Virus record (IMG/VR): IMGVR_UViG_3300020042_001345 | Location: 1-52,880 of that record | Reading direction: 5' to 3' (one strand) | From: a virus | Lineage: Duplodnaviria; Caudoviricetes | Length of the DNA stretch: 52,880 bases | Part shown: positions 3,791 to 40,248 of the stretch, piece by piece | How the letters are laid out: the number at the start of each line of letters is the position of its first letter | How positions within the stretch are numbered: the first letter of the stretch is position 1 | Position numbers and translations under genes: made by a program | The notes under the pieces: model-generated | Seen by the model: only the letters and a program-made list of their open reading frames with translations | Told to the model about the DNA's origin: nothing | Database searches by the model: none

Positions 3791-4816
3791 TTACCTCACT
3801 AAGTAGCCATCGGCATCGTAAAAATTTCCGTTACCGTCGTGATATTCTGAACCAGATGGAGCCATACCGCCATCAGCCAATCGAACACCACCTCCATGCG
3901 CTTTATTAATTACGCCGCCATTGGCAATAGGCTTGCCGCCTCTATCGTAATAAGCTCTTCTAGCATTTGCTTCTGCAATTGATGCAGCTTGCGCCTCAGT
4001 ATCTGGATAAAGCGAAGCAACCAATGTACCCAAACCGCTAATTTGAGACAGCGGACTGAGTCCATACTGTTCTGAGCCAGTTGTTTGCGTAACCGTACCC
4101 TGCGGGATGATATAACCCTGCATAAGTTTTGCGTACTGTTGTGCTTGCGCCATTGGGTAGTCAAGCAGCTTCTGACCTTGTGACTGCTGTTGAGCGCCAT
4201 AGTCAGACATAGTCTTCAAACCCGCCGTACCTAGCTGTTGTTGCTCTTGGCCTAAATTAGTAAACCCTTGACCCGCAGATAAGGCGCGAGACAAATCAGT
4301 CTGCGCTTGCGTGCCAGCGGTTGTATATCCTTGCTGTAGCGCCTGCATTTGCTTGCCTATCAAGTCGGCTTGGATGTCGCGCAAAGCGTTGCCAGTAACT
4401 TGCTGTTGACGACGCGAACCAAATTGACCAGAACCAACAGCCGCCGCACCAAGGTTTGGCAGAATATTCTCTTGAATATTCCGATTACTCAAGCGACCCA
4501 TCTCGTTCACCACACTTGAGGTGTACGGATTCATGTAGTCAGCAATGACATCAGGAACGGTTGTAGCACCCGCCTCGCCTAGTAATTGAGAAGCTGCACC
4601 CAACGACCCAGCGCCAGCAAACGCAACGTCTGGAGCCATCTGGAAGGCTTGCTGTTGCAGTGGACTGAATCCAGCAATACCACCCTGTTGAACAGCGTTC
4701 TGCCCTAAGTTGGCAATGTCTTGCAAATAATTGGTATAAAACTCTGGAGCCGTCTGTTGGGCTTCCGTCGTCTTGGTTAGTGCGGGTAGCGGGTCACCCT
4801 GAAATAAGCCAGCCAT
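3791..4816 (-). CDS. Putative ejection/pilot protein (P22 gp7-like position)
   Basis: Gln/Gly/Ala-rich with YMNPY and GQFGSRRQ segments typical of podovirus pilot proteins. C-terminal xAxGG motifs. Confidence 0.65.
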   Translation of the reverse strand: MAGLFQGDPLPALTKTTEAQQTAPEFYTNYLQDIANLGQNAVQQGGIAGFSPLQQQAFQMAPDVAFAGAGSLGAASQLLGEAGATTVPDVIADYMNPYTSSVVNEMGRLSNRNIQENILPNLGAAAVGSGQFGSRRQQQVTGNALRDIQADLIGKQMQALQQGYTTAGTQAQTDLSRALSAGQGFTNLGQEQQQLGTAGLKTMSDYGAQQQSQGQKLLDYPMAQAQQYAKLMQGYIIPQGTVTQTTGSEQYGLSPLSQISGLGTLVASLYPDTEAQAASIAEANARRAYYDRGGKPIANGGVINKAHGGGVRLADGGMAPSGSEYHDGNGNFYDADGYLVR

Positions 4817-4820
4817 TTTT

Positions 4821-7394
4821 TTATCCTTTCAGGTATGAAGTCAACGCCTTGGTTTTTGGCGGTATCTTGTTCAAAGGAGCGGAGCGCTTATGAGCGCGAA
4901 TACCCTCGCGGAACTTATCCAAAGCCTGTGCGCCTGCTTTAGTTGAGCCGTTGCCAATCTGCGCAACCGTCTCAGCGTCAATTACATATTCACCGTCAGC
5001 AAGCATTGCAGGTATGTCGTCAGACTGACCGTCGCCTTCTCCATGTACCGCAGAGCCGTTACGGAAGTCCATACGGCCTTCAACCATAGGGACATTAGAA
5101 ACATGAGGCAATCCACCCTTACGCATTGGTGGAGGCATACCCTGCTGTTGCGGCATCATGCCCTGCTGAGGCATCCCTTGTGGATTCTGTTGCATCATTT
5201 GTGGTGGCATCTGCTGCGGCAATCCTTGCTGTTGTGCTTGCTGAGGAGGCTTTTGCTGTCCAACTTGAGTCATCATTTCAGGCGAATTCATCGGAGGCTG
5301 TGGGCGCATACCCAAGTTTGCCAAGATGTCTGCGGGCTGACCAAACGTGTAGTAAGACGATACAGGCGTAGCCATTGACGATAAGCCACCAGACGCCATT
5401 TTTGGAGTAGTTGTGTCCGTTGGTTTAGTGTCGTCAACTGGCTCATAACCATAGTCGCCTTCATTGACAGGGTTGTAGCCCGGTGCATTTAAGTTACGCA
5501 ACAACTCTTCATTTGGTGTGTATTCACCAAGGTCAGTGCCGTAGTCTTCATAACCAACATATCGGGTTGGGCCAATACCAAAATCGGTTGTGCGTGGGTT
5601 GATAAGACCAACCTTTGACATATCCAGACCTTGGTTTTGCGCACCAGTACCACCACTAAAATCTTGACCAAGTAATGTAGCAATCAATGCGCCAGCGCCA
5701 GCAGCCCCAGCGGTTGTGCCTAACGCGCCAGTAATGCCACTTAATGCATCACTGCCTAATTTATAAACAGTGTCATAACCTTTTGATAGCGTACTTCCAA
5801 GTTTCTCATACCCAGAACGCTCACCACTACCTGCGGATTGAATTGGGTCGTAAATTAATTCGTCGCCCTGATAATATTGTCCTGAAGGGCTAATAAGAGT
5901 TCCGTCAGAAAAAAAGCGCCAACCATAGTCATCGTCACCAACTTCTGCTGGGTTTTCTACTTCAGTAACAAAATCGTTTGAATTACTAGCTGAGTTAGAA
6001 GCCATAGCTACTGGCGTATCTCTCTTGACCATGTCGGATGTATCAAATGTCTGCCCAACATATTTATCTTGAACTTCGCGGGAAATTTCGTAGCCCATGT
6101 CATCAACGGTTACATAATCTCCATTGGAGTCGTAACCACTAAAGGTTCCATCTTCGTTATCAACATAGCCGCCTCCTACATAGTTAGCTACACCGCCTTT
6201 TTTCATCATAGTAATTAATCCCCCGCGCTTCCAATCGTAGTCACCATAGTCATAATTACCATAGTCTGTATAGTCTGTATCGTTGCCATAATCAATGTAA
6301 TCAATCTCATCTGGCAGTGGCTGGTCTTCTGTTAATGACGCCCAATATTCGTCATAGTCAAAATCGGTTGACCAATTACCATCTGCATCAGCAGTCCAAG
6401 TTGCGCCAGTATCTTTGTCAGTCCAAGTGTTATCTACAAAAGCAGGTTCTTCATCAAAAATCGTTCCATCAGAATTAGCATACAAAATATAGTCGCCGTT
6501 AGAATCTACTGTATAAATGTTTCCATAATCATCTTGAAAATATTGCGGTTCATTTGTAGCTTGACCAGATTCGTCGGTCGAATCTTCATTAGGGGCAGGA
6601 CTCTCGTCAACCTCAGCAGCACGATAAAGCTCATACGTTCCATCTGGCATAACTTTAAATACGTTGCCCAAAGAGTCTGTTGTGTATTCCACATTAAAGT
6701 CATCATCACCCAAACCAGTTGCAGGAACCTTGTCAGGATTTACAGGAAAATCATCATCACCCAAACCAGTTGTTTTATCTTTATCTACTGGCTCATCATC
6801 TTTTAGAGGAAAAGTTTGCCCTTTATCTACTGGAGTCTTAGGTGTTGTTGGGTTTACTGGTGGTTTAGGTGGAGTAACAGGTTTTGTTGAATTATTAAAA
6901 GGAGGAGTTTTTGTATCAGTAACAGGAAGTTTTTGTTTGGGAACGACAGGAGTCTTTCCACCAGAAACAATAGGCTTAGTAACTGACGTTACAGGCTTTG
7001 TTGGGTTTGCTTTATTTATTTTGTCAATAATGGCTTTTGTTCCAGCACCAAGCGCAGCGCCTGTGAGCGCATTTAAAACTTTGCCTGAAGCTGTAGTTTT
7101 ACTAGCTGTGTTTGTAAGTTTAGGCTTAGTTATTCCAGAAGTAGGCGTAGTTATTGATGTCTTAGTGCTAGGCGTCTTAGTAGTAATTGCAGGTGTTTTT
7201 GGTGTAGTTGTTGTAGTTGTAGTAGTTGGCTTCGTTGTAGAAGTTGGCTTTGTTGTAGAAGTTGTTGTATTTTTACCATTACTAATATTTGGGTTTTTAC
7301 TTAAACTTTGAATAATGCTGCTCAAAGGAGCGCGGTCAAGCGCCCCCGCATCAGGAATTTGTTTGTTTGACGTGCGCTTTTTTAGAATAGCCAT
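4821..7394 (-). CDS. Putative internal virion protein, low complexity, with C-terminal SDDIPAML-GEYV domain
   Basis: T/K/P-rich N-terminus, acidic D/Y-rich middle, Q/P/M-rich linker, then VHGEGDGQSDDIPAMLADGEYVIDAETVAQIG. Confidence 0.6.
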   Translation of the reverse strand: MAILKKRTSNKQIPDAGALDRAPLSSIIQSLSKNPNISNGKNTTTSTTKPTSTTKPTTTTTTTTPKTPAITTKTPSTKTSITTPTSGITKPKLTNTASKTTASGKVLNALTGAALGAGTKAIIDKINKANPTKPVTSVTKPIVSGGKTPVVPKQKLPVTDTKTPPFNNSTKPVTPPKPPVNPTTPKTPVDKGQTFPLKDDEPVDKDKTTGLGDDDFPVNPDKVPATGLGDDDFNVEYTTDSLGNVFKVMPDGTYELYRAAEVDESPAPNEDSTDESGQATNEPQYFQDDYGNIYTVDSNGDYILYANSDGTIFDEEPAFVDNTWTDKDTGATWTADADGNWSTDFDYDEYWASLTEDQPLPDEIDYIDYGNDTDYTDYGNYDYGDYDWKRGGLITMMKKGGVANYVGGGYVDNEDGTFSGYDSNGDYVTVDDMGYEISREVQDKYVGQTFDTSDMVKRDTPVAMASNSASNSNDFVTEVENPAEVGDDDYGWRFFSDGTLISPSGQYYQGDELIYDPIQSAGSGERSGYEKLGSTLSKGYDTVYKLGSDALSGITGALGTTAGAAGAGALIATLLGQDFSGGTGAQNQGLDMSKVGLINPRTTDFGIGPTRYVGYEDYGTDLGEYTPNEELLRNLNAPGYNPVNEGDYGYEPVDDTKPTDTTTPKMASGGLSSMATPVSSYYTFGQPADILANLGMRPQPPMNSPEMMTQVGQQKPPQQAQQQGLPQQMPPQMMQQNPQGMPQQGMMPQQQGMPPPMRKGGLPHVSNVPMVEGRMDFRNGSAVHGEGDGQSDDIPAMLADGEYVIDAETVAQIGNGSTKAGAQALDKFREGIRAHKRSAPLNKIPPKTKALTSYLKG

Positions 7395-7397
7395 TTC

Positions 7398-9134
7398 TTA
7401 TCCTGACTTTTTAAGCATTGAAGTTAAACTCGCAATATCGCTTACTGGCGTTAAGTTTGCGGAACTTGATAATTTTTGAGCTGGCGCAGGCTGAGGCGCT
7501 TTTTGAATTGGCGTCAACTTAGCCACATCCATTTTTATTGGCGGAGGCGTTGGTCTTTTAGGCGCTGCTTTTGCCATCTGTAAACCACTCTTAGGAGGGG
7601 CAACAGGTCTACGAGGAACAGGTTTTTTACCTACTTTAAGCGTAGACTTAATTAAGTTTGCAACATTCGCTACAACAGGTTTTGTAATGTCGTTAGTTTT
7701 TAAACCTAAAGAATCAGCCATCTTTTGAGCAGCGTCTTTTACAGACATTGCATTTAACCCACCCTCTGGTTGCTCGGTAGGTAAATCCGATGTCAATAAA
7801 TTGGCAGCAATTGGCGCTTCAGTAATAGGTAAATCAGACTTAACTTCTGCTCTTGCAACGTCAAGGTCTTGCGCAGCATCGGAAGCAATAGCTAAAGCGC
7901 CTTTAGGTTGTCCTGCTTTCTCTTTTTCGGCATCACTAGTAGACGCATAAATATCTAAAACATCACTTGGCAAAACTTCTTCATCAGTTGCCGCAGCAAC
8001 CTCAATAGGTTCATTAGCATCAGCTAAAACAGTTGTGTCAATATTTACATCTTCGTTTGTATCTTGATTTGTATCTTTGCCAAGCAAGTCATAAAAATTT
8101 TCTACAGTATCTGCCTCTGGAGCATTAGCTAATACATTGTCAGACAATACAGAAATATCTGAAACAGCAGTCTCACCGCTAGTATCTTGACTAGTAGCGT
8201 CTGTATTGTCAGCCAAAACATCAGTCAAACTAGGTGTAGTTTCTTCTGATTTGGCATCAGCCATGCCATCAAATCCAAGATTTGAAACAGCAACCTGATT
8301 AACAAGTTCGTCAGGAATGCCTGCGCCTTCTGCTGTGCTTTCAACCGCATCTGCAATTAAACTGTCCTCACCATCTTCTTTACCCCATTGAGTTATGGCA
8401 GATTTAAACTGTTCATCAATACTTGCGTTTAAAGAACGTGCGCCATAATCAACTCCAGAACCAACAGCGCTGTTAGTAAATGATGTGATGAAGTCGCCTC
8501 TGCCTGTAACTTCAGAAGTTAAGCCAGTGGAGAAAGCCCTTGTTCCTGCGTTATATACAGCAGTGGCATCTCGTAAATCCAAACCATTATTCTGCGCCAT
8601 TGCAATTACATCAGGCTTAACGTAACTAGCAACCTCGCCAACTCCACCAGAAATCATGCCACCAGTAAAACCGCCAGCAAATCCGTCGTTAAAATCACCG
8701 CCCCTAACTTCAGAAATTGTCCCGTTAACAAAACCTTTGCTGATTGAATCGCTTGCAACTCGCGAAAATGTTTCGTTCATACCAGCATTAATAAATGATG
8801 AATTCACAGTAGAAGACAGAGCATTTCCAACTTGGGGTGCGTAATATGCTGTGCCTGCTGACAAAGCAATATCTTCAAGGTCACCACCGCGTGCCGCAGT
8901 AATTGCAGCCATTGTTACCGCTGGAGGAATGCCAACAAAACTACCAGCCATAGACAGAAGCGTTGGAAGTGGGTCATCAATTACAGCTTGAACAGTATCG
9001 GCAACAGTTTCAACGACGTTTTCAACAAAACGACCAACCTGTTCAACAGCTTCGCCAACAGATTCAACAACGTCTTCAACGACGTTTACAACTGCATCGA
9101 CAACGCCTTTGACGGCTTTGACTACTGCTGCCAT
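7398..9134 (-). CDS. Putative ejection protein with amphipathic Val-rich N-terminus
   Basis: MAAVVKAVKGVVDAVVNVVEDVVESVGEAV heptad-like repeat, Gly/Ala-rich hydrophobic segment, acidic middle. Confidence 0.55.
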   Translation of the reverse strand: MAAVVKAVKGVVDAVVNVVEDVVESVGEAVEQVGRFVENVVETVADTVQAVIDDPLPTLLSMAGSFVGIPPAVTMAAITAARGGDLEDIALSAGTAYYAPQVGNALSSTVNSSFINAGMNETFSRVASDSISKGFVNGTISEVRGGDFNDGFAGGFTGGMISGGVGEVASYVKPDVIAMAQNNGLDLRDATAVYNAGTRAFSTGLTSEVTGRGDFITSFTNSAVGSGVDYGARSLNASIDEQFKSAITQWGKEDGEDSLIADAVESTAEGAGIPDELVNQVAVSNLGFDGMADAKSEETTPSLTDVLADNTDATSQDTSGETAVSDISVLSDNVLANAPEADTVENFYDLLGKDTNQDTNEDVNIDTTVLADANEPIEVAAATDEEVLPSDVLDIYASTSDAEKEKAGQPKGALAIASDAAQDLDVARAEVKSDLPITEAPIAANLLTSDLPTEQPEGGLNAMSVKDAAQKMADSLGLKTNDITKPVVANVANLIKSTLKVGKKPVPRRPVAPPKSGLQMAKAAPKRPTPPPIKMDVAKLTPIQKAPQPAPAQKLSSSANLTPVSDIASLTSMLKKSG

Positions 9135-9136
9135 GA

Positions 9137-11224: not shown

Positions 11225-11225
11225 G

Positions 11226-26173: not shown

Positions 26174-26488
26174 CTACCATCTTGGTGAAGATTTGTTTTT
26201 TGACGAAGTATTAACTTTGCAATCATTAAGATTGATTGCGCCGCCTTTGGCTTTTCCCGAAGCCGCTTTTTTTTGAGCGGCTCTTTCCATAGCCCTCTTT
26301 CTCATTGCATTAGCCATGTCATCCATCTCTATTGCTTCGGGAGACCTATTGTCTATTTGAGCTTGTTTGATGGCATCCATTTCTTCGCCAGTAACGGTGA
26401 CGCCGTTAGAGTTATAAATAGTTCCCGGCTTATCGTCAGCCGACCGACTTTTCATAAACTGGTCATACTTAGACGTACTATCCGCCAT
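26174..26488 (-). CDS. Hypothetical basic protein
   Basis: GGAG RBS before ATG 26488. Contains KAKGG and ends SSPRW. Confidence 0.6.
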   Translation of the reverse strand: MADSTSKYDQFMKSRSADDKPGTIYNSNGVTVTGEEMDAIKQAQIDNRSPEAIEMDDMANAMRKRAMERAAQKKAASGKAKGGAINLNDCKVNTSSKNKSSPRW

Positions 26489-26499: not shown

Positions 26500-26883
26500 T
26501 TACCAGCCGGGACATTTCCACCGTTTTAGCGATGCTTTAGCCCTTGGAGCATCACCACTTGCATGTTCAACCACTCCTGACATTCTCGCGCAAAAACTGT
26601 CTTTACGCGACCCTCCTTGTGGTTGCGGAGCCTTTAAATTACTACCTGTTTCTTTGTTGTACTTAGCTCGACCTTTTGCAGTCAAACCAGCGCCTTGCTC
26701 AACTGATAGTTTCTCACCGCGACCAACGGCAAGACTTGGCCCACCTTCTTTAAACTTTTTCCCCTTATCAGCTTTAGCAAACTCTTTGCCGACTTTTTGA
26801 GGGATTCCAACTTTTTTGGCAAACGCAGGATTGTGCGCAACCGCTTGCATCAAATTGTGTTGGGAAGATGATTTGCTAGGCAT
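26500..26883 (-). CDS. Basic two-domain protein (C-terminal part DUF6321-like)
   Basis: MPSKS..QHNLM.AVAHNP.FAKKVGIP domain joined by FKEGG to GLTAKGRAKYN...RKDSFCARM...SLKRWKC. Confidence 0.6.
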   Translation of the reverse strand: MPSKSSSQHNLMQAVAHNPAFAKKVGIPQKVGKEFAKADKGKKFKEGGPSLAVGRGEKLSVEQGAGLTAKGRAKYNKETGSNLKAPQPQGGSRKDSFCARMSGVVEHASGDAPRAKASLKRWKCPGW

Positions 26884-26885
26884 AG

Positions 26886-27095
26886 TTACCAACAAGATTT
26901 TTTAGCAGCACCGCCAGTTTTTTTCTTGGCAGTTTTTGCAGACTCTACAAAGTCTTGTTTTGTTGGCGCACCCTTGCTACCAGTTTTGCGCATCTTTTCG
27001 CCAGAGCCTTCAGCAATTCTCTCGCGTTTTGCATTAATATTTGCATACAATCCGCCTCCTTTAAATTTACTTTTGGTAGGTGATTTGCTTGGCAT
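26886..27095 (-). CDS. Small basic hypothetical protein
   Basis: GLYANINAKRERI..GSGEKMRK.GSKGAPT, flanked by FKGGG and KKTGG. Confidence 0.65.
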   Translation of the reverse strand: MPSKSPTKSKFKGGGLYANINAKRERIAEGSGEKMRKTGSKGAPTKQDFVESAKTAKKKTGGAAKKSCW

Positions 27096-27543: not shown

Positions 27544-28770
27544 TTAACAAGCACTACCGCCGCGTTTTTTAGATACCGTAACTGACTGTTTGCTTTTTGT
27601 AACACGAGGGCCGGGTTCATTCATTGAACGTAAACCCAAACCTTTCATGTACAAATCGCCATACTCATCAGCAAAGTCGCTAGCTTCTTTAACAATCTTG
27701 CTATTACGAACCTTATCGTACATTTCTTTTGCCATGCTCAAAGGATTCATTGCATCCTCTAATTCACGACCGTACTTTGCGGCTTTATCATAATCAGCGG
27801 TAGACTTATCCATCTCTTTATCAGACACGGAACCACCACCAGCCATCTTCTGATACTTGCTGTAGACCTCGTTGGATTGTGCTTTAGCCGATTTCATAGC
27901 GGGCGCATTTTCCTTACCAAATGTCTTCATTAGATTACCCTCAGCAGGGGTGACCTTGCCACCTTTTTTGAAAGTACCAGCATTACGATTAGTACTTACA
28001 GGAGACGATGGTTTTTTAGCGCCTTGAGGCATCGCGACGGCACGACCTGAATTAACAGTTCCCCCCGTCGCGTAGGCTTTTTTTGAGGATTTGCCTCCCG
28101 ACTTAAAGCCACCAGCATTACCCATTTTGGCGCCACCAGTAGCCATCCCACCCATTTTCATGGAAGAATTTTTCATCATGTTACCGTTAGGCATCATGTG
28201 CATACCACCGCCACCCATCATAGCTTTGCCGCCTTTTTTCATCTTGCCTTTGCCATCAGCCGCAAAGTCAGGAACCATCTTCCCATCCTTCTCAACCATT
28301 GACATACCGCCGTCTTTGTAGCCACCAGTCTTCAGACCTTTATGTCCTTTGCTAGCAGGCTTGGACTCGTGAGACTTCAGTTCTTTCTCAAGACCCTTCA
28401 TCTTCGACATTTCAGCCTTGTGCGTTGCTTTAGACTCGCCGCCTCCAGCTTTGCCACCTTTTTTCATTGGTGACATACCCATTGCTGGGCTAGAAGGCGT
28501 CATTGCAGGCTTCTTAGCCATCATCGACTTACGACGTGAAGCCATCGAAGGCTTCATAGGGGCGCGAACAGGAGCGTTCACAGCAGGACGACCAACCAAA
28601 GCAGGAGTGCCAGACATCATGTCCATAGCACCACCGCCCATAGCCATCTTCTTGTGACCAGCTTCCGCTTTACCACCCTTTTTCATGTTGACGTGACCAC
28701 CTTTTTTGAGTTTTAACTCAACAGTTGGCTCCGTGGTCTCCATCTTCACCATTGGTTTAAATTGACCCAT
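27544..28770 (-). CDS. Lys/Met/Gly-rich basic protein with an array of MKKGG-type motifs
   Basis: AAGGAG RBS before ATG 28770 (MGQFKP). 13 copies of [MYFL][AK]xGG. Confidence 0.75.
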   Translation of the reverse strand: MGQFKPMVKMETTEPTVELKLKKGGHVNMKKGGKAEAGHKKMAMGGGAMDMMSGTPALVGRPAVNAPVRAPMKPSMASRRKSMMAKKPAMTPSSPAMGMSPMKKGGKAGGGESKATHKAEMSKMKGLEKELKSHESKPASKGHKGLKTGGYKDGGMSMVEKDGKMVPDFAADGKGKMKKGGKAMMGGGGMHMMPNGNMMKNSSMKMGGMATGGAKMGNAGGFKSGGKSSKKAYATGGTVNSGRAVAMPQGAKKPSSPVSTNRNAGTFKKGGKVTPAEGNLMKTFGKENAPAMKSAKAQSNEVYSKYQKMAGGGSVSDKEMDKSTADYDKAAKYGRELEDAMNPLSMAKEMYDKVRNSKIVKEASDFADEYGDLYMKGLGLRSMNEPGPRVTKSKQSVTVSKKRGGSAC

Positions 28771-30748: not shown

Positions 30749-30760
30749 TATTTATTCTCC

Positions 30761-31333: not shown

Positions 31334-31363
31334 AGTCTTACTCCTAATGTTCAGTTAAATACC

Positions 31364-31903: not shown

Positions 31904-31914
31904 TTTATTACTCC

Positions 31915-33474: not shown

Positions 33475-33650
33475 GCGTTAGACTTATCCACGCCCTTGTT
33501 TTGGGAAAAATTACCGTGGTCGCTGTTAGCCTCTGGCATAGTCGCTGTTGAATTCTCTTTTAATGATTCGCCTGTAACCCAAGCGCCAGCACCAATGCGG
33601 GTTTTCTGACGCACTTGTTCTGATTGATACTCTTTAGTTTCTTTTTCCAT
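33471..33650 (-). CDS. Small hypothetical protein (59 aa, not in ORF track)
   Basis: MEKETKEYQSEQVRQK...KSNA. AGGAG RBS and ATGA overlap with the next gene. Confidence 0.65.
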   Translation of the reverse strand: MEKETKEYQSEQVRQKTRIGAGAWVTGESLKENSTATMPEANSDHGNFSQNKGVDKSNA

Positions 33651-33651
33651 G

Positions 33652-36165
33652 TCATGCTCCTAAGTTGCGTTGTGTGGACTGATTAAGTTTGATTGCAGTA
33701 TCTTCCTGCTCCTTACGCAGCTTGACCTCGTCCACGGTCAACTCTGCGGTCTTAATACGCTCGGTAGTCAAGTTGTTTTCGGCGTTCATAGCCACCTTGG
33801 CATCCCTGTCTTGAGCTTTTTCTTGTTGGCCTGCTTGGAACTTCTGAGTGTCGAGTGCCAGCTTTGCTTGGTCTGATGCGGCACGGCGCTGAGTCTCTGC
33901 CATAGACGCCTGCAATACAGCCTGAGCCTCGCCTTCCATTGGAGGTGGCTGCGGCTTGAACTGTTGCATCAGTTGTCCTAACTGCTCTAGCGCAGGCAAA
34001 ACGCCTTGGAATACCTGCTTGGTATCCAAGCTGACGTGGTCTGACGCCACCGCAATAGCGCGGTCGATTTCCTTGGCAATCTTGCTGTCCTCGTACTTGC
34101 CCATCTTGACGTCACCAGCAGCCAAGACGTAGCCCTGCACCTGTTGGGTGTACCAGAGCATCATGTGCTGCTTGATATGCTCTAGTGCCTGTGGAATAAA
34201 CTTCGGTGCAATCAAACGGTTGGAACCTAGCATCGGGTCAAGAGCAAACGTCAGGTGCGTCTGGATGTGCGCAAGGTGGTCTTGACGTGGATAAGCAAAC
34301 GCTGGCTTACCTAGCGACATTGCGCTGTTCTCGTCTGCCGCGTTTAACTCTGCGGGTTTACCCGTATTAGGCATTAGTTCGTTGACGTTCGGAACCTTCA
34401 ACTGCCTGAGCATACGGCTCACTACAGCACGCTGGTCAAAAATCTGCGGGAACTGTGCAGACAACTGCATGACTGACTGCATCTGCGCAACACGCTGTGT
34501 TTCAGAGAAGATGTGCGGGTCGCTGACAGGAACCACGTCACTGTTACGTTTAAAGTCTGAGCGCTTGATAGCCAATTCGGCAACGATGTCACCCTTGCGT
34601 TGCTCGTCTAAGTGCCAGCGGTTAATACGTCCAAGAACGTGCAGCACGCGGCGCTGGGCATCATGCAAGCGTGAGTGAATAGACGAGAAAACTACTGCGC
34701 CTTGCTCAATCAATGCCTGCGTTGTACCTACTGGCATATTGCTGTTAGCGTCTGCAATCTTCTCTTCGGCGGTAGTTACCACGCCTTTAGCCTGATTTGT
34801 CAGCCAGCCTAGCAACTCAAACAGCACAGGCGAAGGTGGGTTGAATGGCATAGGCATCGCAATCTTGCGAATGTCATCTACACCAATACCGCCTTCAATC
34901 TCGGTGACCTGCGTAATCTCAACTTGGTCTGACTGACCAGACACTTTTGCACCCTTGAGTTTTAACATAGTCAAGGAGTTATTAACGTGCGCAGTATCTA
35001 GCAAAGCTCGTAGTGAACCCGTAGCGGCGGCAGATAAGCCACCGATAAGGTGAGGTAGTCCAATGGCGTATGCGCCACGCCAAGGGATAAACTTAAACTC
35101 AATAATCCAATCCAACTTCGTAAAGGTTTCGTCGCCCTCTTCCCAGTTGCGATACAGACCAAGTACCTTGTTGTCTAGTTCGTCAATCATCAGGATGTAG
35201 GGCGCGTTTTCTCCTTTAGTGCGCTCATCGTCATCAAGGTCAAGCCAAGTGTAAATGTGGTACACGCGGCGCAATCCGTCTTCACCGTCTTGGAACTGCT
35301 TGCCCTCAATCTTGGCGTTGGCTTTTTCAGCCGCAGTCTGCTCAGGCTCTGACGTGGTGCGAATAAAGTTGATGTCGCGGTACAAGCCACGGTCAATACG
35401 TTGCTTGAACTCCCACTCACTAATGTCCTGCTGTTCCGTTACACGCTGCGAGGTATAGAAGTTAGCGGAAGCAAAGGGGAGCAAGATGTTATCAATGGCG
35501 ACGAACTCAGCGCAGGGTCGGCGCTTTTTATCATCGAACCACAGTTTCATAAACTGCGAACCACCTAACGGCAACTGAGTGAGCATTTGCTCTTGCTCGT
35601 CCCTAAACTCTTCAATCTGCTCGGTCAACTGCCAGTTCATGTAGTCGCGCTTGCGCTCGGCTATCTCAGTCTTCTCGTCTGTTACCTCGCCAATAATCTT
35701 AGTCTTGGCTGGGCCATCAGGTGGAAACATCTCCTTGATTGCGCGGGAAGCAAAGTCTACACACGCTTCAGCCATCATTGGGTGAACTACCTTTGAGGCT
35801 CCAAGGAACTGAGCGCCTCCCGGGGCATCGTCGCCCATGCCTGTACGGCGGAGACCTTCTTCGTATTGCTTGTCGCGCTTCTTGCGTGCTTGGCGGTCGT
35901 TGTCAATCAACTCGATGTAGCGCATAGCCAGCGATTCCAACTCACGCACGCTGATAAGTTCCTCAGCCAAGTTAGCGTAGAAGTCCTCATCTTCGGCTGG
36001 GCCTTTGAAGTCTGCAAGACTTACCACGGCAGAACCGTCTGGCAACTCCTCAACATCAGGCTCCTCACCGGGCAGCATATCCACCTCAGCGCCACCCTCA
36101 TCCGTCATGCGGATACCATCAATGAAGCGGTCTTCATCAGGGCCAATCGGATAATCTGTTGCCAT
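33652..36165 (-). CDS. Portal protein
   Basis: 837 aa with GASKVVHP..AEACVDF, DYMNWQLTE and PVGTT.AL.EQG. C-terminal coiled-coil barrel. Located between terminase and scaffold. Confidence 0.85.
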   Translation of the reverse strand: MATDYPIGPDEDRFIDGIRMTDEGGAEVDMLPGEEPDVEELPDGSAVVSLADFKGPAEDEDFYANLAEELISVRELESLAMRYIELIDNDRQARKKRDKQYEEGLRRTGMGDDAPGGAQFLGASKVVHPMMAEACVDFASRAIKEMFPPDGPAKTKIIGEVTDEKTEIAERKRDYMNWQLTEQIEEFRDEQEQMLTQLPLGGSQFMKLWFDDKKRRPCAEFVAIDNILLPFASANFYTSQRVTEQQDISEWEFKQRIDRGLYRDINFIRTTSEPEQTAAEKANAKIEGKQFQDGEDGLRRVYHIYTWLDLDDDERTKGENAPYILMIDELDNKVLGLYRNWEEGDETFTKLDWIIEFKFIPWRGAYAIGLPHLIGGLSAAATGSLRALLDTAHVNNSLTMLKLKGAKVSGQSDQVEITQVTEIEGGIGVDDIRKIAMPMPFNPPSPVLFELLGWLTNQAKGVVTTAEEKIADANSNMPVGTTQALIEQGAVVFSSIHSRLHDAQRRVLHVLGRINRWHLDEQRKGDIVAELAIKRSDFKRNSDVVPVSDPHIFSETQRVAQMQSVMQLSAQFPQIFDQRAVVSRMLRQLKVPNVNELMPNTGKPAELNAADENSAMSLGKPAFAYPRQDHLAHIQTHLTFALDPMLGSNRLIAPKFIPQALEHIKQHMMLWYTQQVQGYVLAAGDVKMGKYEDSKIAKEIDRAIAVASDHVSLDTKQVFQGVLPALEQLGQLMQQFKPQPPPMEGEAQAVLQASMAETQRRAASDQAKLALDTQKFQAGQQEKAQDRDAKVAMNAENNLTTERIKTAELTVDEVKLRKEQEDTAIKLNQSTQRNLGA

Positions 36166-36174
36166 GTCTAATCC

Positions 36175-39100
36175 TTATCGTGACAGCGCGGTCAATCCGC
36201 CAAGTCGTTTCTTTGGTTCTTTTGCCATACCAGTTAACTTCGACAACTTTTTTGCGCCCTTCTTAATTAATCCTGCTGGCGCAAGAATACCTGCCGTAAT
36301 CTCGGCAAGCGGGAACTCGTTGTCGCCTATTGCGCCAGACTCCCTCAACGCATCAAGGTATCGCTCACTACCAAGCCAAGGTTTCTCAGAAGAAAGGTTG
36401 ACTGGGTAGCGTGTGCTGCTAAGTCCAGCGTCAACGCCCATCAATCCTAAGTTGATTAAGTCAGGGATACCTCCAAGGAACTGAGCGCCCGTGCGTAGAG
36501 CAAAGTCTTTCGCTCCGCCTGCGGTTGTCAATTGACTAGCCTCTTGCGCAACTTGTTCTTTTGCAAGTTTGTACAATTTGGGCGCGTTGCGCTTGATGTT
36601 TGCCCAGTCCTTCTCGGTAAGCGCTGGCTCACGGCGTGCGTCTTCCGATGGCTCAGACAGGTCAACAGCTATGCCACCACCGTCGAAGTGTTGGGCGTCC
36701 TTCCATTGAATAGTCTTGAACGCACCGCCGCCTTCGGCTTTCTTCTTTTCCTTGGGCTTTTTTTCTTTTGCCAGCAAGTCAGGAGCCGCAACACCCATTG
36801 CCGCAGCGATTGCCGCGTTCTTACGGAACGGGTCAAACGCCGCAAAGCGTGAGCGCACGTTGTCTGGGTTCATGCTAATTGTGTGTTCGCCGCCAATGTT
36901 CAATTGGGGATTCATAAATTGTGGCGTGTGGCGTATTTCATCAACATCAAAGTGCTGCATAAAGTCGCCAGCGGCTACGCCTCCTGAAACCATGTCGCCG
37001 CTATATGGGTCATACAAAATAGCGTCGTTACCTTCTTTTTTAATTGTATTGAACAAATCACGCGCAGGAACTTTGCCTTCTTCGTCAGCATAATCCAACA
37101 TAAATTCTCTTATTGGATTTGTCTCACCACCCATTTCATCGTACTCTTTTAAAGCCCTGTTAAATCTTGGAGTGCTAGGTGTATCCACATACATATCAGA
37201 GGCTTCGTCGTATCTCTCAAACGGGCCAACCATATGCGGATTAGATTCTGGCTTGTCGAGGTGGATTGGCTTGTCTGACCTGACCTTCAGCGGATACACA
37301 ACGCCAATGTTGTCAGCGTTAACTGTGTTCCCCAGAATGATTTGCTGTTGGCGCGGAGTTAAAGCCTCGTCCTTCATACGTTGGTGCGTTCTGCGCCAGT
37401 CTTTTTCTAAATCATCCATGCCTCTATTAACTTTTCCTGCAACGTCCGCTCCGTAAATGCTTGCGTAGTTTTCGCTGGCATCTTTTGGAGAATCAGTTGA
37501 GTAGACGCCTCTGCCTGCGTGACTTTCGGTGGAGGCTCTGTTGGAGTCAAACTTTTTGATGTCGTGAACCGAACCGTGATAAGTGTCCTTGTCAAAGCCC
37601 ATCGCCTTCGCTCGTTGCGCTGGCGTATTGTTCGCAGGCAAGCCCAAACCACCCTTAGCTGGTGGTAACGCGGCACGCTCCTGAGCCAGCCTTAACGCCT
37701 CATCTTGAGGAGCCATCAACACCTTGCCAACTTTCTTTGCGCCCTCTAACAAGTTGCCAAACTTACCGCCCTTAGCCATTGCTATACCGCCATGAGCCTT
37801 AGTAATGTCAGGGTCGTTGATGTCGTATGTGCCACGGTTGCCTATAGCTGATTTGATTTGGGTAGGATTAAACGCAATAAAATCTTCCCCAATTTCGACA
37901 CCGTCATACCCACCTTTTTTTGCCAACTCCATAATCTTTTGACGGTTGTTGTCAAATAGCGTGCCTTCATTAAATTTTGTATCCAATCCTAACGCAATAG
38001 CATTTTTTGGGGTTATTACCAATGGATTCTTTAGACTTAAATGAACTGGCATTACATTAGCGCCAATCCTTGTGCCTCCAAATTCGTATGGGTCTTGGGC
38101 GGCATAAATTGAGGCTGTTTGAGGATTAGATGTAAAAAACATACCTTCTTTATCCATCCCATAATTTTCTCCAGCCTTAGATGAGTCAAAGGCAGTTATA
38201 TCCTTGTTTGTTCCATGATAGACGCGCTGCTTAACTTTGCTTGATTCAAGAAATTTTTGTTTGTTAGTTTCTTTTAAATCATTTATGAATTCAGCGTGAC
38301 CAATATCTTCTTGACCGCCACGTCTAGAAATATAGAACTTTGCAATATCTTCAGGGCTATACCCATAACTCAATCCATATTGAATAGAATTTTGAGCATC
38401 CATTAATCTTTGAACATCTTCTTTTGTTTTGCCAGCGTGTACAGTTCCCATTTTGTCGTCATGTACGCTCAACCCAGATTTCTTTAGATTTTTTACAAAA
38501 TCACCCATTTCATATTCTTCAGAAAATGGATGGCCCATGTTTATATCAAACCTAGTAGCAGAAATTTTTCTGTCTTTTAAATCACGAAAATCTTCTTTGG
38601 ATGTTCGTGCTTGATGTATTTGACCCTTATTTGCCATTTGCTTAAATTCATCAACAGACATATTTGGATTAAGCGCAGAAATATTTTTATTTTTTAATTC
38701 TGCTTCCATTTTGGCTTGTTGTGCAGCTTTCCTCGCAGCCATCTCAGCAGCCACAGCCTTCTGTGGGTCTTCAGTCCCAGTAGGTAGCTTAGTCAGCACG
38801 TCCATTACCTTCTTCGCGCCTTTGACTAGCTTGCCACCATCCGCCATAAACTCTAGCTTTTTGAAGGCTCCGCCTCCGTCAGCCATGCCAAGTCGGGCGT
38901 CGATAGCTGCCTGCAATCTAGCGTCAGCCGCCTCAATGTCAACCGCGCCACCCTTAGCCATACGCTTCTCAATAGCCGCGGCTAGTCGCTCGTCCGCCGC
39001 CTTGATGTCTACAGCCCCGCCTTTCTTGTACTCACCTTCTTTAATCTTCAGGTCAGCAAGACGGCGTTGCTCCATAAGCCTGTTCAGCCATTCGTCATCA

Positions 39101-40248
39101 GCATATTGAATTGGGTGGGCGCGAGAGAAAGAGTAGTAGTCACCTGACTCTGGTTGACTTAGCAACCGACGGCGGTCGAAATGGGTTTGGAACACATCCT
39201 TATAATCTGCGGGTACATCTAGCTTGCCAGCAACCTTACCCGCCATTGCGACAGGGTAGTCAGATGGAATGTTTGGCTGCTCGATAATACGCCCTGTAGT
39301 ATCCATACGCGCCAGTCTAAAACCAGTCTGATTGGTTGGGACATCAAGCAACTCAGGCTCAATGATAGCCTTGCGAGTGGCAGGCACATCAGGAAAGCCC
39401 ATTGCTTGGAAGTTCTCTTTGCCCATCGTTCCTAACAACTTGGTGCGGGCAATACCATTGCTTTTGTCGAGCAACATTGTTTGAGCATCAGGGCTAAGAA
39501 TACCGGGCCAATCTGGAATGGCAGGGAACTCCTTCGTACCCTCCCGCATCGCTCGGTCAAACTCTTGCGCTGACTTCTTAGTAATCTTGCTATACGGCAA
39601 CTGCTGAAGCAGGGCGTTAGTTCCCATTATGTTGAAGTCGGTATTGGTTCCAGACCCAGCAGTGTAGATGCCATAGACAGGGCGACCATCCGCGCCTGCA
39701 CGTTCAGCCTGACGACCTAGCGCGGTAACTCGACTAAGCCCAGACTCCCATGCGGCTGACTCTTCTGGGTCAAGGCGATTGTAGTTGGCGTCCATGTAGC
39801 GTGGGCCTGCGGTCAGCCTTACGGGCGTTTCAAGTTCGTTCTCGCCAACGTGGGTCAGGTATCGACCACCAGCGGCTCGGTCGCCAACCAATGGGAATAG
39901 TGCCGCCTCCTCTTTGACTAACTGCTCAGGCGTGATAATGCCGATGTCTGGAGGGTTGAACTTAGGGTCAGCCACCGTGGTGGCGTGCATACCTGTTACT
40001 GGCTTAGACAGCTTGATGCCACCGCCGACTGGGTGATACAGACCTAGCGCCTCGTTCGCCTTCTTGTTACGCGCAGGCAGGTTAGCCATCTGCTCTGCAA
40101 CCTGCGCATTCTTGGCGGCACGGGCAGCAGCCTCTTGCTCATGAGCGACGCGCCCTGCGGCTCGGATTGCGTTCAAGGCTCCCTCGTCATCGTTAGCAAG
40201 CAGCATCTTGCCAACCTTACCGAGTCCACCTAGTAGTTTCTTTGCCAT
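36175..40248 (-). CDS. Large multidomain (polyvalent-like) protein with two ADP-ribosyltransferase-like modules
   Basis: VYHGT..FD..GMFFTS...NVMPVHL.LKNP...GYDG...NPTQIKSA and TYHGS..FD..GVYST...VYPL...NPDNVRSRFA resemble ART-PolyVal domains. Confidence 0.7.
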   Translation of the reverse strand: MAKKLLGGLGKVGKMLLANDDEGALNAIRAAGRVAHEQEAAARAAKNAQVAEQMANLPARNKKANEALGLYHPVGGGIKLSKPVTGMHATTVADPKFNPPDIGIITPEQLVKEEAALFPLVGDRAAGGRYLTHVGENELETPVRLTAGPRYMDANYNRLDPEESAAWESGLSRVTALGRQAERAGADGRPVYGIYTAGSGTNTDFNIMGTNALLQQLPYSKITKKSAQEFDRAMREGTKEFPAIPDWPGILSPDAQTMLLDKSNGIARTKLLGTMGKENFQAMGFPDVPATRKAIIEPELLDVPTNQTGFRLARMDTTGRIIEQPNIPSDYPVAMAGKVAGKLDVPADYKDVFQTHFDRRRLLSQPESGDYYSFSRAHPIQYADDEWLNRLMEQRRLADLKIKEGEYKKGGAVDIKAADERLAAAIEKRMAKGGAVDIEAADARLQAAIDARLGMADGGGAFKKLEFMADGGKLVKGAKKVMDVLTKLPTGTEDPQKAVAAEMAARKAAQQAKMEAELKNKNISALNPNMSVDEFKQMANKGQIHQARTSKEDFRDLKDRKISATRFDINMGHPFSEEYEMGDFVKNLKKSGLSVHDDKMGTVHAGKTKEDVQRLMDAQNSIQYGLSYGYSPEDIAKFYISRRGGQEDIGHAEFINDLKETNKQKFLESSKVKQRVYHGTNKDITAFDSSKAGENYGMDKEGMFFTSNPQTASIYAAQDPYEFGGTRIGANVMPVHLSLKNPLVITPKNAIALGLDTKFNEGTLFDNNRQKIMELAKKGGYDGVEIGEDFIAFNPTQIKSAIGNRGTYDINDPDITKAHGGIAMAKGGKFGNLLEGAKKVGKVLMAPQDEALRLAQERAALPPAKGGLGLPANNTPAQRAKAMGFDKDTYHGSVHDIKKFDSNRASTESHAGRGVYSTDSPKDASENYASIYGADVAGKVNRGMDDLEKDWRRTHQRMKDEALTPRQQQIILGNTVNADNIGVVYPLKVRSDKPIHLDKPESNPHMVGPFERYDEASDMYVDTPSTPRFNRALKEYDEMGGETNPIREFMLDYADEEGKVPARDLFNTIKKEGNDAILYDPYSGDMVSGGVAAGDFMQHFDVDEIRHTPQFMNPQLNIGGEHTISMNPDNVRSRFAAFDPFRKNAAIAAAMGVAAPDLLAKEKKPKEKKKAEGGGAFKTIQWKDAQHFDGGGIAVDLSEPSEDARREPALTEKDWANIKRNAPKLYKLAKEQVAQEASQLTTAGGAKDFALRTGAQFLGGIPDLINLGLMGVDAGLSSTRYPVNLSSEKPWLGSERYLDALRESGAIGDNEFPLAEITAGILAPAGLIKKGAKKLSKLTGMAKEPKKRLGGLTALSR

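Follow-up and report, generated by a model that had tools for sequence, protein, structure and literature searches.

The complete genome of a freshwater podophage (52.9 kb) carries, in a restricted set of its proteins, a genuine short linear motif under selection at the protein level, with Phi-[K/A/R]-x-G-G-x-[V/A/I] as its fuller form. This motif, which appears to be previously undescribed, is found in three settings: at the joint between shuffling modules, as a C-terminal tag ([K/R]3-GG plus a short tail) and in dense arrays. The proteins that carry it are most likely kept in the head and ejected with the DNA, and we favour, with a probability of about 0.4, the reading that it is an uncleaved docking or hinge motif of these internal, ejected proteins.

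An initial annotation of the window (the whole stretch of 52,880 nucleotides) had reported a recurrent pentapeptide in at least seven otherwise unrelated late proteins, to be checked against shuffled controls in this proteome and its relatives. All the instances listed are present. Using a strict pattern, [MYFLK][AK]xGG, fixed post hoc from this same genome, and composition-matched shuffles (2000 per set) as controls, 34 copies were counted against 5.5 (whole-protein shuffle) or 6.6 (30-residue local shuffle) expected; none of the 2000 shuffles reached 34. The copies are confined to seven proteins (the 408-aa basic protein, the 1357-aa ART-PolyVal polyvalent protein, three small basic modular proteins and two ejection-type proteins) and to two Gly-rich fibres (32-34% Gly), which hold 4 of the 34. 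When the fibres and the 408-aa protein were set aside, 15 copies remained against 3.3-4.1 expected, a number again matched in 0 of 2000 shuffles. The 408-aa protein by itself holds 15 copies (about 1 expected), the 1357-aa protein 7 (0.6-0.9 expected) and the three small proteins together 4 (0.2-0.3 expected); the 857-aa and 341-aa proteins are individually weak, with two copies each, matched in 26-78 of 2000 shuffles. No strict copy occurs in the other 11,568 residues of the proteome, about 2 being expected, and the regex scan found none in capsid, portal or terminase, as had been noticed before. Four further complete relatives contain 16-22 motifs against about 5 expected, in the same protein classes; being kin of this phage they are incompletely independent, so that motif counts across them are not independent events. 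The motif context accounts for 24% of GG sites in polyvalent proteins (6.4% expected) and for 5% (5.7% expected) in control proteins (portal, adaptor, decoration).

A degenerate pattern that was defined after looking, with 4 of 34 copies in Gly-rich fibres and two carriers individually weak, might reflect no more than chance or the composition of Gly/Lys-rich proteins. This explanation was rejected, its probability being close to nil: local shuffles never match the counts (0/2000), the enrichment replicates in relatives, the control class lacks it, and the positions of the copies are conserved. The motif glycines are encoded by a mixture of GGC and GGT, in 10 different codon pairs, which places selection on the protein and counts against a DNA-level recombination signal. 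A hydrophobic residue occupies position +2 after GG at 150 of 201 sites in polyvalent proteins, indicating that the prime side of the motif is conserved too.

Table 1. Motif-bearing proteins and their elements, with positions in the window.
Feature	Position	Strand	Description
341-aa protein	3794..4816	-	weak match to DNA ejection protein family (phrog_4287, E=0.003)
Tail array of 341-aa protein, residues 290-317	3866..3949	-	YDRGG, IANGG, KAHGG, LADGG; 8-residue spacing
857-aa ejection or tape-measure-like protein	4824..7394	-	C-terminus matches tape-measure PHROGs and PDB tape-measure chains
C-terminal element MRKGG...GDGQSDDIPAMLADGEYV, tape-measure-type unit of 857-aa protein	4824..5126	-	kept in relatives
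104-aa basic protein	26177..26488	-	KAKGG79
127-aa basic protein	26503..26883	-	module A, FKEGG44, DUF6321; phrog_16759 and PF19846
69-aa basic protein	26889..27095	-	module B between FKGGG11 and KKTGG58; tail ..SCW; phrog_16028
408-aa basic protein, pI 10.1	27547..28770	-	main carrier, 15 strict motif copies
C-terminal tag KKRGGSAC of 408-aa protein	27547..27570	-	from family tail comparison
Disordered region of 408-aa protein, residues 21-271	27958..28710	-	13 strict copies; AlphaFold2 disorder
1357-aa polyvalent protein	36178..40248	-	ART-PolyVal at residues 675-807 (Pfam E=9e-27)
C-terminal tag PKKRLGGLTALSR of 1357-aa polyvalent protein	36178..36216	-	basic-GG-L tail
Linker 3 of 1357-aa protein, residues 1170-1191	36676..36741	-	KAEGG, FDGGG ahead of C-terminal domain
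Linker 2 of 1357-aa protein, residues 817-828	37765..37800	-	KAHGG, MAKGG immediately after ART domain
Linker array 1 of 1357-aa protein, residues 407-472	38833..39030	-	YKKGG, MAKGG, MADGG, MADGG around 23-, 25- and 13-residue units

Two proteins have dense arrays, the 408-aa protein and, in its tail, the 341-aa protein. For the 408-aa protein 13 copies had first been counted; the strict pattern gives 15, of which 13 lie in its disordered region. The protein matches no Pfam or PHROG family and has at least 4960 homologues in metagenomes, all unnamed. Among 62 homologues each carries 5-15 copies, and the logo of their 1026 GG sites shows Y/M/L/F at -3 and K/A at -2. At 10 of the 15 sites no fewer than 82% of homologues conserve GG, and identity within the family is higher in motif residues (0.61) than in spacers (0.46) or in the C-terminal domain (0.25). 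AlphaFold2, run with the 62-sequence alignment, predicted disorder across the motif stretches (pLDDT <50). Basic-GG lies within the last 12 residues in 53 of 55 unique family tails. A terminal Cys is present in 48 of the same 55 tails. From gene position, basic charge and the PHROG labels of relatives, we infer that the 408-aa and small basic proteins are located inside the virion.

Module joints bearing the motif occur in the polyvalent effector proteins and in the small basic proteins built of modules A, B, C, D and E. The 1357-aa protein contains the copies originally described (YKKGG407, MAKGG430 and 824, MADGG455 and 468, KAHGG817, KAEGG1170, FDGGG1187). It combines several unrelated effector-type domains, among them ART-PolyVal and a second ART-like region (Pfam), and is encoded with virion genes, as the polyvalent definition has it. 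Its relatives have PcfJ, DUF7178, LPD23 and ParB_N domains in shuffled order, and the gene adjoins the portal gene. The cassette of linker array 1 (23-25-13/14 residues) joins different domains in these relatives, linker 2 is the point where homology to relatives stops, and at linker 3 the HSPs to relatives L002, L004 and L005 begin at residues 1170-1171. Overall, 21% of mosaic breakpoints lie within 10 aa of a motif, against 6.7% at random. Of 44 polyvalent proteins, 31 have the motif within 40 aa of the C-terminus and only 5 within 40 residues of the N-terminus. The basic-GG-L tail follows differing last domains, so that the tag is independent of the domain that precedes it.

The copies first noted in the small proteins were likewise recovered (Table 1), FKEGG44 sitting between the phrog_16759 part and DUF6321 of the 127-aa protein; the 104-aa protein has only 4 homologues among 80 loci. 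The small modules exist both as separate genes and in fused forms, and in relatives 61 of 64 junctions between shuffled modules carry the motif. Together with the breakpoints of the polyvalent proteins, these joints bear out the earlier impression that the motif clusters at segment junctions. In distant phages the motif is missing after both module A and DUF6321, which indicates that it is dispensable for the function of those modules.

Such observations also suit a passive flexible linker lacking specific recognition, a lineage-specific "linker dialect" spread by cassette copying during domain shuffling, in which Gly-Gly would be kept merely for flexibility and Lys/Ala for solubility. The 23-25-13 residue cassette in several polyvalent proteins, the position of the motif in disordered segments, its absence from the same modules in distant phages and also from the related phages CRP-901 and RLK would all follow. 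We nevertheless consider a purely passive role unlikely, as it leaves unaccounted for the conserved hydrophobics at -3 and +2, the terminal copies, which have nothing to link, the 13 copies in 250 domain-free residues of the 408-aa protein, better conserved than its folded part, and the invariant copy in a tape-measure-type unit shared from lambda to this phage. The mixed codons, here too, oppose a recombination signal in the DNA.

The invariant copy belongs to the 857-aa protein, in which WKRGG388, MKKGG397, MASGG666 and MRKGG757 are all present as first reported, as are IANGG297, KAHGG305 and LADGG313 in the 341-aa protein; 38 of the 40 unique tails listed for homologues of the latter keep 2-4 copies. 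Where the conserved C-terminal domain of the 857-aa protein begins, an invariant GG is accompanied by Phi at -3 in every one of the 25 relatives aligned. The element aligns with FATGG..GEFV of lambda gpH, phmmer matched the C-terminus to Douge gp16 and JBD30 gp46, and gp066c of Caulobacter phage RLK has MARGG-GPGTGRSDSI..GEYV. The 857-aa protein alone shows the tape-measure arrangement, Phi-A/K-x-GG followed within about 10-35 residues by G-x-G..S-D-x-I-P-A..G-E-[F/Y]-V; SD.IPA..GE[FY]V is absent after the motif copies of the 408-aa, polyvalent, small and 341-aa proteins. An older tape-measure/ejection unit is the probable source of the lineage-specific copies. The consensus of the 408-aa family, YATGGxVDSGxPVAMP, bears only a faint resemblance to the downstream element. 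AlphaFold2 models of the unit (25 sequences; mean pLDDT 54.7, mostly helices) were too poor for fold comparison, and Pfam gave no match to the S24 family in it, which bears on the idea of a LexA/S24 self-cleaving module.

More than 590 viral contigs share the capsid protein of this phage. The closest isolates are Caulobacter phages; RLK, whose capsid protein is 76% identical, jointly lacks the 408-aa protein, the polyvalent protein and the small modules, and a single strict motif was found across 34 coding sequences around its head genes. We count this joint absence in favour of the docking or hinge reading, together with the domain-independent basic-GG tag, the conserved +2 hydrophobic and the failure to find a protease. 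According to this reading the motif would not be cut. The Gly-Gly turn with its flanking hydrophobic residues would act as a flexible knuckle, by means of which chains of small domains may be packed away and passed through the portal-tail channel. The same knuckle could double as a multivalent docking handle, recognised by a single partner that the carriers share when they are incorporated or ejected. Multivalent binding would fit arrays whose copies stand 5-8 residues apart and vary in number. Part of the recurrence consists of copied linker cassettes, which we count against docking.

A different possibility, to which we give somewhat less credit, is that the motifs are proteolytic sites. The polyvalent and small modular proteins would then be cut at or after Gly-Gly, the terminal tags removed and the 408-aa protein converted into many short basic peptides, by a host protease, an enzyme of an unrecognised family or a self-catalysed cut. 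A motif exactly at the joints of modules also found as separate genes (61/64), tails of 3-20 residues past the terminal copies and a position in accessible disorder (AlphaFold2) are also expected of a polyprotein with cleavage sites. The T4 gp21 sites in internal proteins and Alt and the adenovirus (M/L/I)XGG sites provide an analogy. Cutting in Gly-rich joints by an unknown or unusual protease also has phage precedent: in lambda gpH a cut falls near FATGG733, within the Gly-rich C-terminal region (PMC12617516), and processing is proven at the Gly-rich junction of TP901-1 Tal (PMC11409707). Moreover, in the lambda tail genes a JAB/NlpC peptidase adjoins a Ub-like protein whose C-terminal glycine is conserved (PMC1779556).

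The enzyme searches argue against cutting. Pfam revealed no prohead protease in 50 window proteins, the sole peptidase being of the M15 cell-wall type, and neither did PHROGs on 30 proteins or Atlas leads for the 179- and 190-aa proteins. When all six frames of the complete genome were searched with the HMMs PF02902, PF03412, PF14464 and PF00877 (C48/Ulp, C39, JAB and NlpC/P60), there were 0 matches at E<=1. Domain scans showed no peptidase, embedded MPTase included, in any of 44 polyvalent relatives, and among the relatives compared no enzyme-sized gene shares the distribution of the motif set. Back-to-back conserved copies 5-8 residues apart would be odd for cleavage sites, Pro immediately follows GG in the common A-C module junctions, the hydrophobic residue is one position farther from GG than in LXGG-type sites, and the capsid protein has no motif site. 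The initial annotation had proposed a shared signal for proteolytic maturation and/or cargo loading, which is partly supported: the boundary position, the probable internal or ejected carriers and the C-terminal tags speak for it, while the missing protease and the close spacing of copies weigh against its proteolytic half. That the Gly-Gly joints are true maturation sites, processed by self-cleavage, by a peptidase of a new family or by an enzyme recruited from the host, we regard as rather doubtful. If they were, polyvalent proteins would be polyproteins releasing separate effectors, fused A-B-C proteins would yield small basic DNA-associated modules, the 408-aa precursor would give about 15 short basic peptides, as in adenovirus core-protein maturation or polyubiquitin, and the same chemistry would account for gpH cleavage beside FATGG.

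It had further been suggested that Gly-Gly cleavage could expose N-terminal glycines as plausible acceptors for an ACP/ketosynthase module. More broadly, the exposed glycine or an adjacent lysine could be acylated by the phage ketosynthase/ACP, or the motif modified by a 2OG-Fe(II) oxygenase. The window does encode a ketosynthase (9580-10695, Pfam), an ACP-like 93-aa protein with a DSLD motif and, in the structural region, a 2OG-Fe(II) oxygenase, and the Cys end of nearly all 408-aa family proteins can be counted for an acceptor. The suggestion fails on distribution, however: the ketosynthase, the ACP-like protein and their neighbour are present in only 2 of 5 motif-bearing relatives (missing in 3), and tblastn detected the oxygenase in 0 of 5. 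No acyltransferase was found, the scheme presupposes a cleavage that is itself putative, and at most sites a cut after GG would leave a residue other than glycine at the new N-terminus (A, E or L at +1 in 105/201). Modification is thus highly improbable.

Signals for loading or injecting phage head proteins are largely unknown outside T4 and phiKZ-like phages, and for polyvalent effectors only an embedded peptidase has been proposed so far. Here one short motif links polyvalent effectors, an abundant unnamed family, DUF6321-type small basic proteins and ejection proteins of a widespread freshwater podophage lineage, and connects them to the Gly-rich end of tape-measure proteins. Whichever reading is true, it provides a sequence handle for predicting phage virion cargo, a defined set of sites for mass spectrometry and possibly a tag or joint that could be transferred to foreign proteins to load them into capsids.

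Several known systems can be compared. T4 has capsid-targeting sequences and gp21 (L/I-x-E) sites in internal proteins, Alt and scaffold. As in such prohead-type systems (T4 gp21, phiKZ gp175), a short site is common to proteins thought to be head-internal and injected, an ADP-ribosyltransferase included, and is absent from terminase and tail. T4, however, has a dedicated prohead protease and N-terminal signals, whereas here no protease was found and the motif is internal or C-terminal and unrelated in sequence. Gly-Gly is cleaved at adenain (M/L/I)XGG-X sites, LXGG sites of deubiquitinases, polyubiquitin and double-glycine leaders, where likewise a hydrophobic residue and then Gly-Gly end each unit of a multi-unit precursor. 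In those sites the hydrophobic residue is one position closer to GG; here it is the fifth before the putative cut, with K/A at the fourth, the six-frame searches gave no clan CE (C48), C39 or JAB peptidase and the modules are not beta-grasp. Encapsulin cargo-loading peptides are, like the tag described here (31/44 polyvalent proteins, 53/55 tails of the 408-aa family), short, C-terminal and independent of the cargo domain, and serve an HK97-fold shell; GGL-T-A-L-S-R gives us the impression of resembling LTVGSLRR-type tags. They differ in that binding of the present tag to the capsid protein is only putative.

The Tal protein of TP901-1/Tuc2009 also has a Gly-rich motif at the structural/catalytic junction of a processed virion protein, but as a single poly-Gly/Ser run, NGGGNSGGGD, in one tail protein and not as a shared Phi-K-x-GG (PMC11409707). 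The 1357-aa protein and its relatives are polyvalent proteins of the kind that Iyer et al. 2017 describe from phages and conjugative elements, having ART-PolyVal, PcfJ, LPD23 and ParB in shuffled order by the portal (PMC5512222). These authors propose processing by an embedded zincin-like MPTase, a domain absent from the 44 relatives scanned here, and the words "linker", "glycine" and "low-complexity" do not occur in their main text (PMC5512222). Tape measures (lambda gpH, Douge gp16, JBD30 gp46) share the unit that begins with the copy at residue 757 of the 857-aa protein. In lambda gpH, cleavage falls within the Gly-rich C-terminal region, with site and enzyme still open after 50 years; FATGG733 and YATGG778 lie in the cleaved-off part, in agreement with the initial annotation (PMC12617516). 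A tape measure has 1-3 copies of the unit, which the structures from lambda, JBD30 and Douge leave unresolved, whereas here its five-residue head has spread without the downstream part to the 408-aa array, polyvalent linkers, small modules and C-terminal tags.

The strict motif [MYFLK][AK]xGG was present 34 times in the 15,977 amino acids encoded by the window, which is a complete virus record of 52,880 bp with direct terminal repeats (completeness estimate 100%). Shuffling of whole proteins led to an expectation of 5.5 copies and shuffling in 30-residue blocks to 6.6, and 34 copies were reached in none of 2000 shuffles. The 408-aa protein carried 15 strict copies (about one expected), the 1357-aa polyvalent protein seven (0.6-0.9 expected) and the three small basic proteins together four (0.2-0.3 expected). 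The 857- and 341-aa proteins carried two copies each, a number equalled by 26 to 78 of 2000 shuffles, and their enrichment is weak when they are taken singly. Four of the 34 copies belonged to two fibre proteins with 32-34% glycine and are compositional, while the remaining 11,568 amino acids contained none, about two being expected. Every instance listed in the initial annotation was found, and its observation of a pentapeptide recurring in late proteins is confirmed, with an excess stronger than was visible from the sequence alone. As the strict pattern had been defined on the window genome itself, it was therefore tested in other genomes and proteins. Four complete relatives, whose capsid proteins are 93-98% identical and whose accessory proteins are far more divergent, contained 16-22 copies in the same protein classes (about five expected). 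At 1026 non-overlapping GG sites from 62 unique homologues of the 408-aa protein, position -3 was Y, M, L or F in 70% and position -2 was K or A in 70%. A hydrophobic residue at -3 combined with K, A or R at -2 was found at 24% of the 552 GG sites of 44 polyvalent proteins (6.4% expected), whereas 171 control portal, adaptor and decoration proteins from the same loci gave 5% (5.7% expected). Since V, A or I was preferred at +2 after the glycines (150 of 201 sites in polyvalent proteins), the fuller motif can be written Phi-[K/A/R]-x-G-G-x-[V/A/I], Phi being hydrophobic. A recombination signal at the DNA level was ruled out, as the motif glycine codons were mixed, with 10 different codon pairs.

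The late genes of the window are on the minus strand and are listed with neighbouring features in the table. Relatives of the capsid protein are encoded on at least 593 viral contigs and, judged by this protein, the phage is a member of a very common freshwater group. Its capsid protein is 76% identical to that of Caulobacter phages RW/RLK and 41% identical to that of the more distant HTVC023P-type pelagiphages. The Cpn10/GroES-like gene is kept in Caulobacter phage RLK, CRP-901, HTVC023P, DSL-LC04 and MW202785. The 190-aa protein gave only a weak lead towards a cement protein (Atlas, score 0.84). In one relative (L054:42-1583; G004 32506-34761) the large terminase is 751 aa long, matches Intein_splicing and probably contains an intein.

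Late genes and neighbouring features of the window, in the order of the late genes
Feature	Coordinates	Strand	Remarks
Small and large terminase		-	start of the late gene order
1357-aa polyvalent protein	36178-40248	-	ART-PolyVal domain; after terminase
Portal		-	after the 1357-aa gene
60-aa protein	33292-33474		acidic, helical; directly downstream of the portal gene
Cpn10/GroES-like protein	32877-33305	-	between portal and scaffold-like genes
Scaffold-like protein, 321 aa		-	charged; after GroES-like gene
179- and 190-aa proteins		-	between scaffold-like and capsid genes
Major capsid protein		-	Phage_capsid_4
325-aa protein		-	Ala/Thr/Gly-rich; between capsid and 408-aa genes
408-aa protein	27547-28770	-	main motif carrier
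134-aa protein		-	after the 408-aa gene
Small basic proteins, 69, 127 and 104 aa	26177-27095	-	after the 134-aa gene
SU10-type adaptor, then tail and fibre genes		-
Two fibre proteins, 567 and 579 aa	17858-21309		32-34% glycine; phrog_2295; beside oxygenase
Second small protein	17599-17853		faint PP-binding_2 match, E=0.049
2OG-Fe(II) oxygenase	16994-17602		PF13759
ACP-like protein, 93 aa	10686-10967		DSLD motif; among tail and ejection genes
Ketosynthase, FabF/B-like	9580-10695		among tail and ejection genes
578-, 857-, 341-, 597- and 609-aa proteins		-	last block
857-aa protein	4824-7394	-	last block; C-terminus matches tape-measure families
341-aa protein	3794-4816	-	last block; DNA ejection protein family, weak match
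609-aa protein		-	last block; SLT transglycosylase domain

The interval between terminase and portal encodes, in relatives, mosaic proteins in which the same domains appear in varying order. The N-terminal polyvalent domain of the window is C-terminal in locus L073, and its ART domain is N-terminal in loci L056 and L051. The initial annotation had placed the motif at domain boundaries, and this holds for the polyvalent breakpoints: 21.2% of 1217 internal BLAST match ends, which are mutually dependent and come from a set of 45 that included one terminase-intein reading frame (L054_42_1586), fell no more than 10 residues from a strict motif, versus 6.7% at random (maximum of 200 randomisations, 8.5%). 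The median distance from match end to motif was 57, versus 127 at random. In six proteins, different domains are joined by a conserved linker cassette, made of units of about 23, 25 and 13 residues that each end in the motif. The motif also occurred within 40 residues of the C-terminus in 31 of 44 polyvalent proteins (about 15% expected at the given motif density) and within the first 40 residues in only five; the terminase-intein frame was excluded from these counts and from those of GG context. The typical tail reads [K/R]3-GG-L-x-x-[LM]-[ST]-[RK], regardless of the preceding domain. Complex prediction for such a tail with the capsid protein gave a score of 0.00 in one run without controls, which is uninformative either way.

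The small basic proteins are modular as well. Across 80 capsid-anchored loci, 72 unique proteins were made of five small modules, namely A (MPSKS.., phrog_16759), B (phrog_16028), C (DUF6321), D and E. Their architectures were A-C (19), C (13), A-B-C (12), A (7), A-B (5), A-D (5) and E-C (3), with two each of A-E-C, E-B, B and B-C. The relaxed motif occupied 61 of the 64 junctions between adjacent modules, so that its placement between distinct segments was borne out here too; the three remaining junctions carried HKDGG, MGDGG or AKEGG. When the modules are split between genes the break falls at the joint, and the motif with a short tail often stays on the upstream protein (..GACW, ..CCW, ..KSCW; GG in 14 of 21 tails). 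Small module proteins finish in ..CW, ..CCW or ..CPGW. Beyond the lineage, module A was found without the motif after it in 201phi2-1 gp383, PBECO4 gp454 and Rhizobium phage RHph_TM27A, and among cyanophage DUF6321 fusions KKKGG was near the boundary in S-CRM01 only. CRP-901 had no strict copy in 9319 aa and MW202785 had one. DUF6321 occurs in 568 phage records, covering T4-like and T7-like cyanophages, pelagiphages and others, and was near terminase genes in three of five records fetched. Module A stands at the head of annotated virion structural proteins in jumbo phages such as PBECO4.

The 408-aa protein is basic (pI 10.1). AlphaFold2, run on a 62-sequence alignment, predicted disorder for residues 1-270, helices at 275-377 and then a disordered tail; 13 of the motif copies are in the first, disordered region. 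A folded beta-roll-like repeat was rejected, as the model predicted disorder and no solenoid. Of 8000 candidates scored, at least 4960 matched the family, which has neither a Pfam domain nor a name, at E<=0.001. Sixty-four full-length homologues contained 5-15 strict copies, and at 10 of the 15 window sites GG was retained in at least 82% of 61 homologues. Identity within the family was 0.61 at motif residues, 0.46 in spacers and 0.25 in the helical part. Basic-GG was present in the final 12 residues of 53 of 55 unique tails, and the very last residue was Cys in 48 of the 55 (..KKRGGxAC; 27547-27570 in the window, homologues in loci L002-L081), for which a disulfide, a metal or a modification are possibilities.

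The initial annotation had suggested proteolytic maturation or loading into the head. In favour of cleavage, the motif joints separate modules that are also found standing alone, short tails follow the terminal copies, and the sites are in regions predicted to be disordered. Gly-rich joints are reported to be cut in lambda gpH (PMC12617516) and in TP901-1 Tal, where NGGGNSGGGD precedes the catalytic domain (PMC11409707). Among lambda tail genes, a JAB/NlpC peptidase adjoins a Ub-like protein that has glycine at its C-terminus (PMC1779556). However, Pfam detected only an M15 cell-wall peptidase among 50 window proteins, PHROGs no protease among 30, and the Atlas leads likewise none. A peptidase domain was found in none of 44 polyvalent proteins, a set that included the terminase-intein frame (Terminase_6N, Terminase_6C and intein matches). 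When the whole genome was searched in six frames with HMMs of Prok-JAB, NlpC/P60, C39 and C48, none matched at E<=1, whereas control genomes responded. No enzyme-sized gene tracked the motif across five motif-bearing and two motif-lacking genomes; the genes that did were those of the 60-aa acidic protein, the 408-aa protein and, for its N-terminus only, a 211-aa protein. Copies 5-8 residues apart that are each conserved, as in LKTGGYKDGG, MKMGGMATGG and the 341-aa protein with its 8-residue spacing, make poor sense as cut sites. The common A-C joint has Pro after GG, and the hydrophobic residue is one position farther from GG than in LXGG-type sites. We consider it rather unlikely that the motif copies are cleavage sites.

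A further suggestion, that cleavage would expose glycines as acceptors for the ketosynthase/ACP module, fared poorly and is given little weight: these genes were present in only two of five motif-bearing relatives, and a cut after GG would expose Ala, Glu or Leu rather than Gly at 105 of 201 polyvalent sites. The 2OG-Fe(II) oxygenase, detected by tblastn in none of seven relatives compared, could be a hydroxylase of the collagen-like fibres.

We tentatively favour, with a probability of about 0.4, a motif that stays uncleaved and serves internal, ejected proteins as a hinge and for docking. Cleavage ranks second and a passive inherited linker, which we regard as improbable, third, mainly because no protease was found and because of the tandem arrays. 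A shared docking motif would fit the restriction to one protein set, the C-terminal tags that do not depend on the domain, and the multivalent arrays. The motif-bearing set appears to travel together, with the lineage of Caulobacter phage RLK as the one comparison. RLK has homologues of the portal, GroES-like, scaffold-like, 179-, 190-aa, adaptor, 857- and 341-aa proteins but none of the 408-aa protein, of the small modules or of any polyvalent protein. Its 34 coding sequences around the head genes contain one strict copy, and the tape-measure-type copy is kept. The motif proteins are likewise missing from the other nearest isolates, Caulobacter phages RW, KcrB and GB2A. The 60-aa protein is the only small gene product with the phyletic pattern of the set (5/5 motif-bearing, 0/2 motif-lacking genomes); it may partner the basic proteins, or else be too divergent for detection. 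An earlier description of the motif was not found in the literature searched, which covered capsid targeting sequences as well as Gly-rich motifs of tape measures, and nothing was found on DUF6321. The main text of the polyvalent-protein paper (PMC5512222) contains no linker or glycine terms; supplements, such as its alignments, could show such linkers.

The ejection proteins connect the motif with other phages. In the 857-aa protein, the copy at 757 begins the only strongly conserved part, between a variable Pro/Gln/Met-rich sequence and an invariant GDGQSDDIPAMLADGE[Y/F]V; GG was invariant and -3 was M, Y, F or L in all 25 aligned relatives, picked from 83 for diversity. Homologues of the 341-aa protein had 2-4 copies at 8-residue spacing in the last 50 residues (38 of 40 unique tails among those listed). 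The 341-aa protein ends in YD-like repeats (..DGNGNFYDADGYLV; window 3794-3865), several YD-like D-G-x-Y/F units occupy the middle of the 857-aa protein (window 5700-6600), and its long N-terminal region is Thr/Pro-rich. Giant proteins of 2261 and 2672 aa in two related genomes (G003 4691-11476; G005 42290-50308) terminate in a tape-measure-type unit and have no further strict copies; ejection genes may be fused or replaced there. The 119-residue C-terminus of the 857-aa protein was poorly modelled by AlphaFold2 (pLDDT 54.7), and a LexA/S24-like self-cleaving domain, considered from G-x-S-D-S-[IM]..G-[DE]-[FY]-V, gave no Pfam S24 match.

This C-terminal unit matched tape-measure PHROGs and, among PDB sequences, mycobacteriophage Douge gp16 twice (YAGGG/YANGG-FLSG-x-GTGRSDSM..NGEF) and Pseudomonas phage JBD30 gp46 (FASGG-HIKGPGTGTSDSIP); the motif region is not resolved in the JBD30 (PMC11445458) or Douge (PMC13033339) structures. 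The RLK homologue is compact, MARGG-YAVKGPGTGRSDSI..DGEYV, and ends in ..RYMDGGRV. The FATGG/YATGG motifs that the initial annotation gave for lambda gpH were confirmed: FATGG733 is followed by ..GIVHRGEFV, and YATGG778 and MRDGG842 are also present. PMC12617516 describes the exact site and enzyme of gpH cleavage as not established, and only residues 818-849 of the cleaved fragment as resolved, bound to gpI. RLK gp066c (L196) and lambda H (L082; ..QMRDGGLFSGGGR) share M-[RD]-D-G-G shortly before the stop, a stretch that in lambda H is within the part seen bound to gpI. Copy 757 thus forms part of a unit that is old and widespread. The lineage-specific copies may have been derived from this tape-measure unit, as hinted by ..AYATGGxVDSGxPVAMP.. 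in the 408-aa family consensus.
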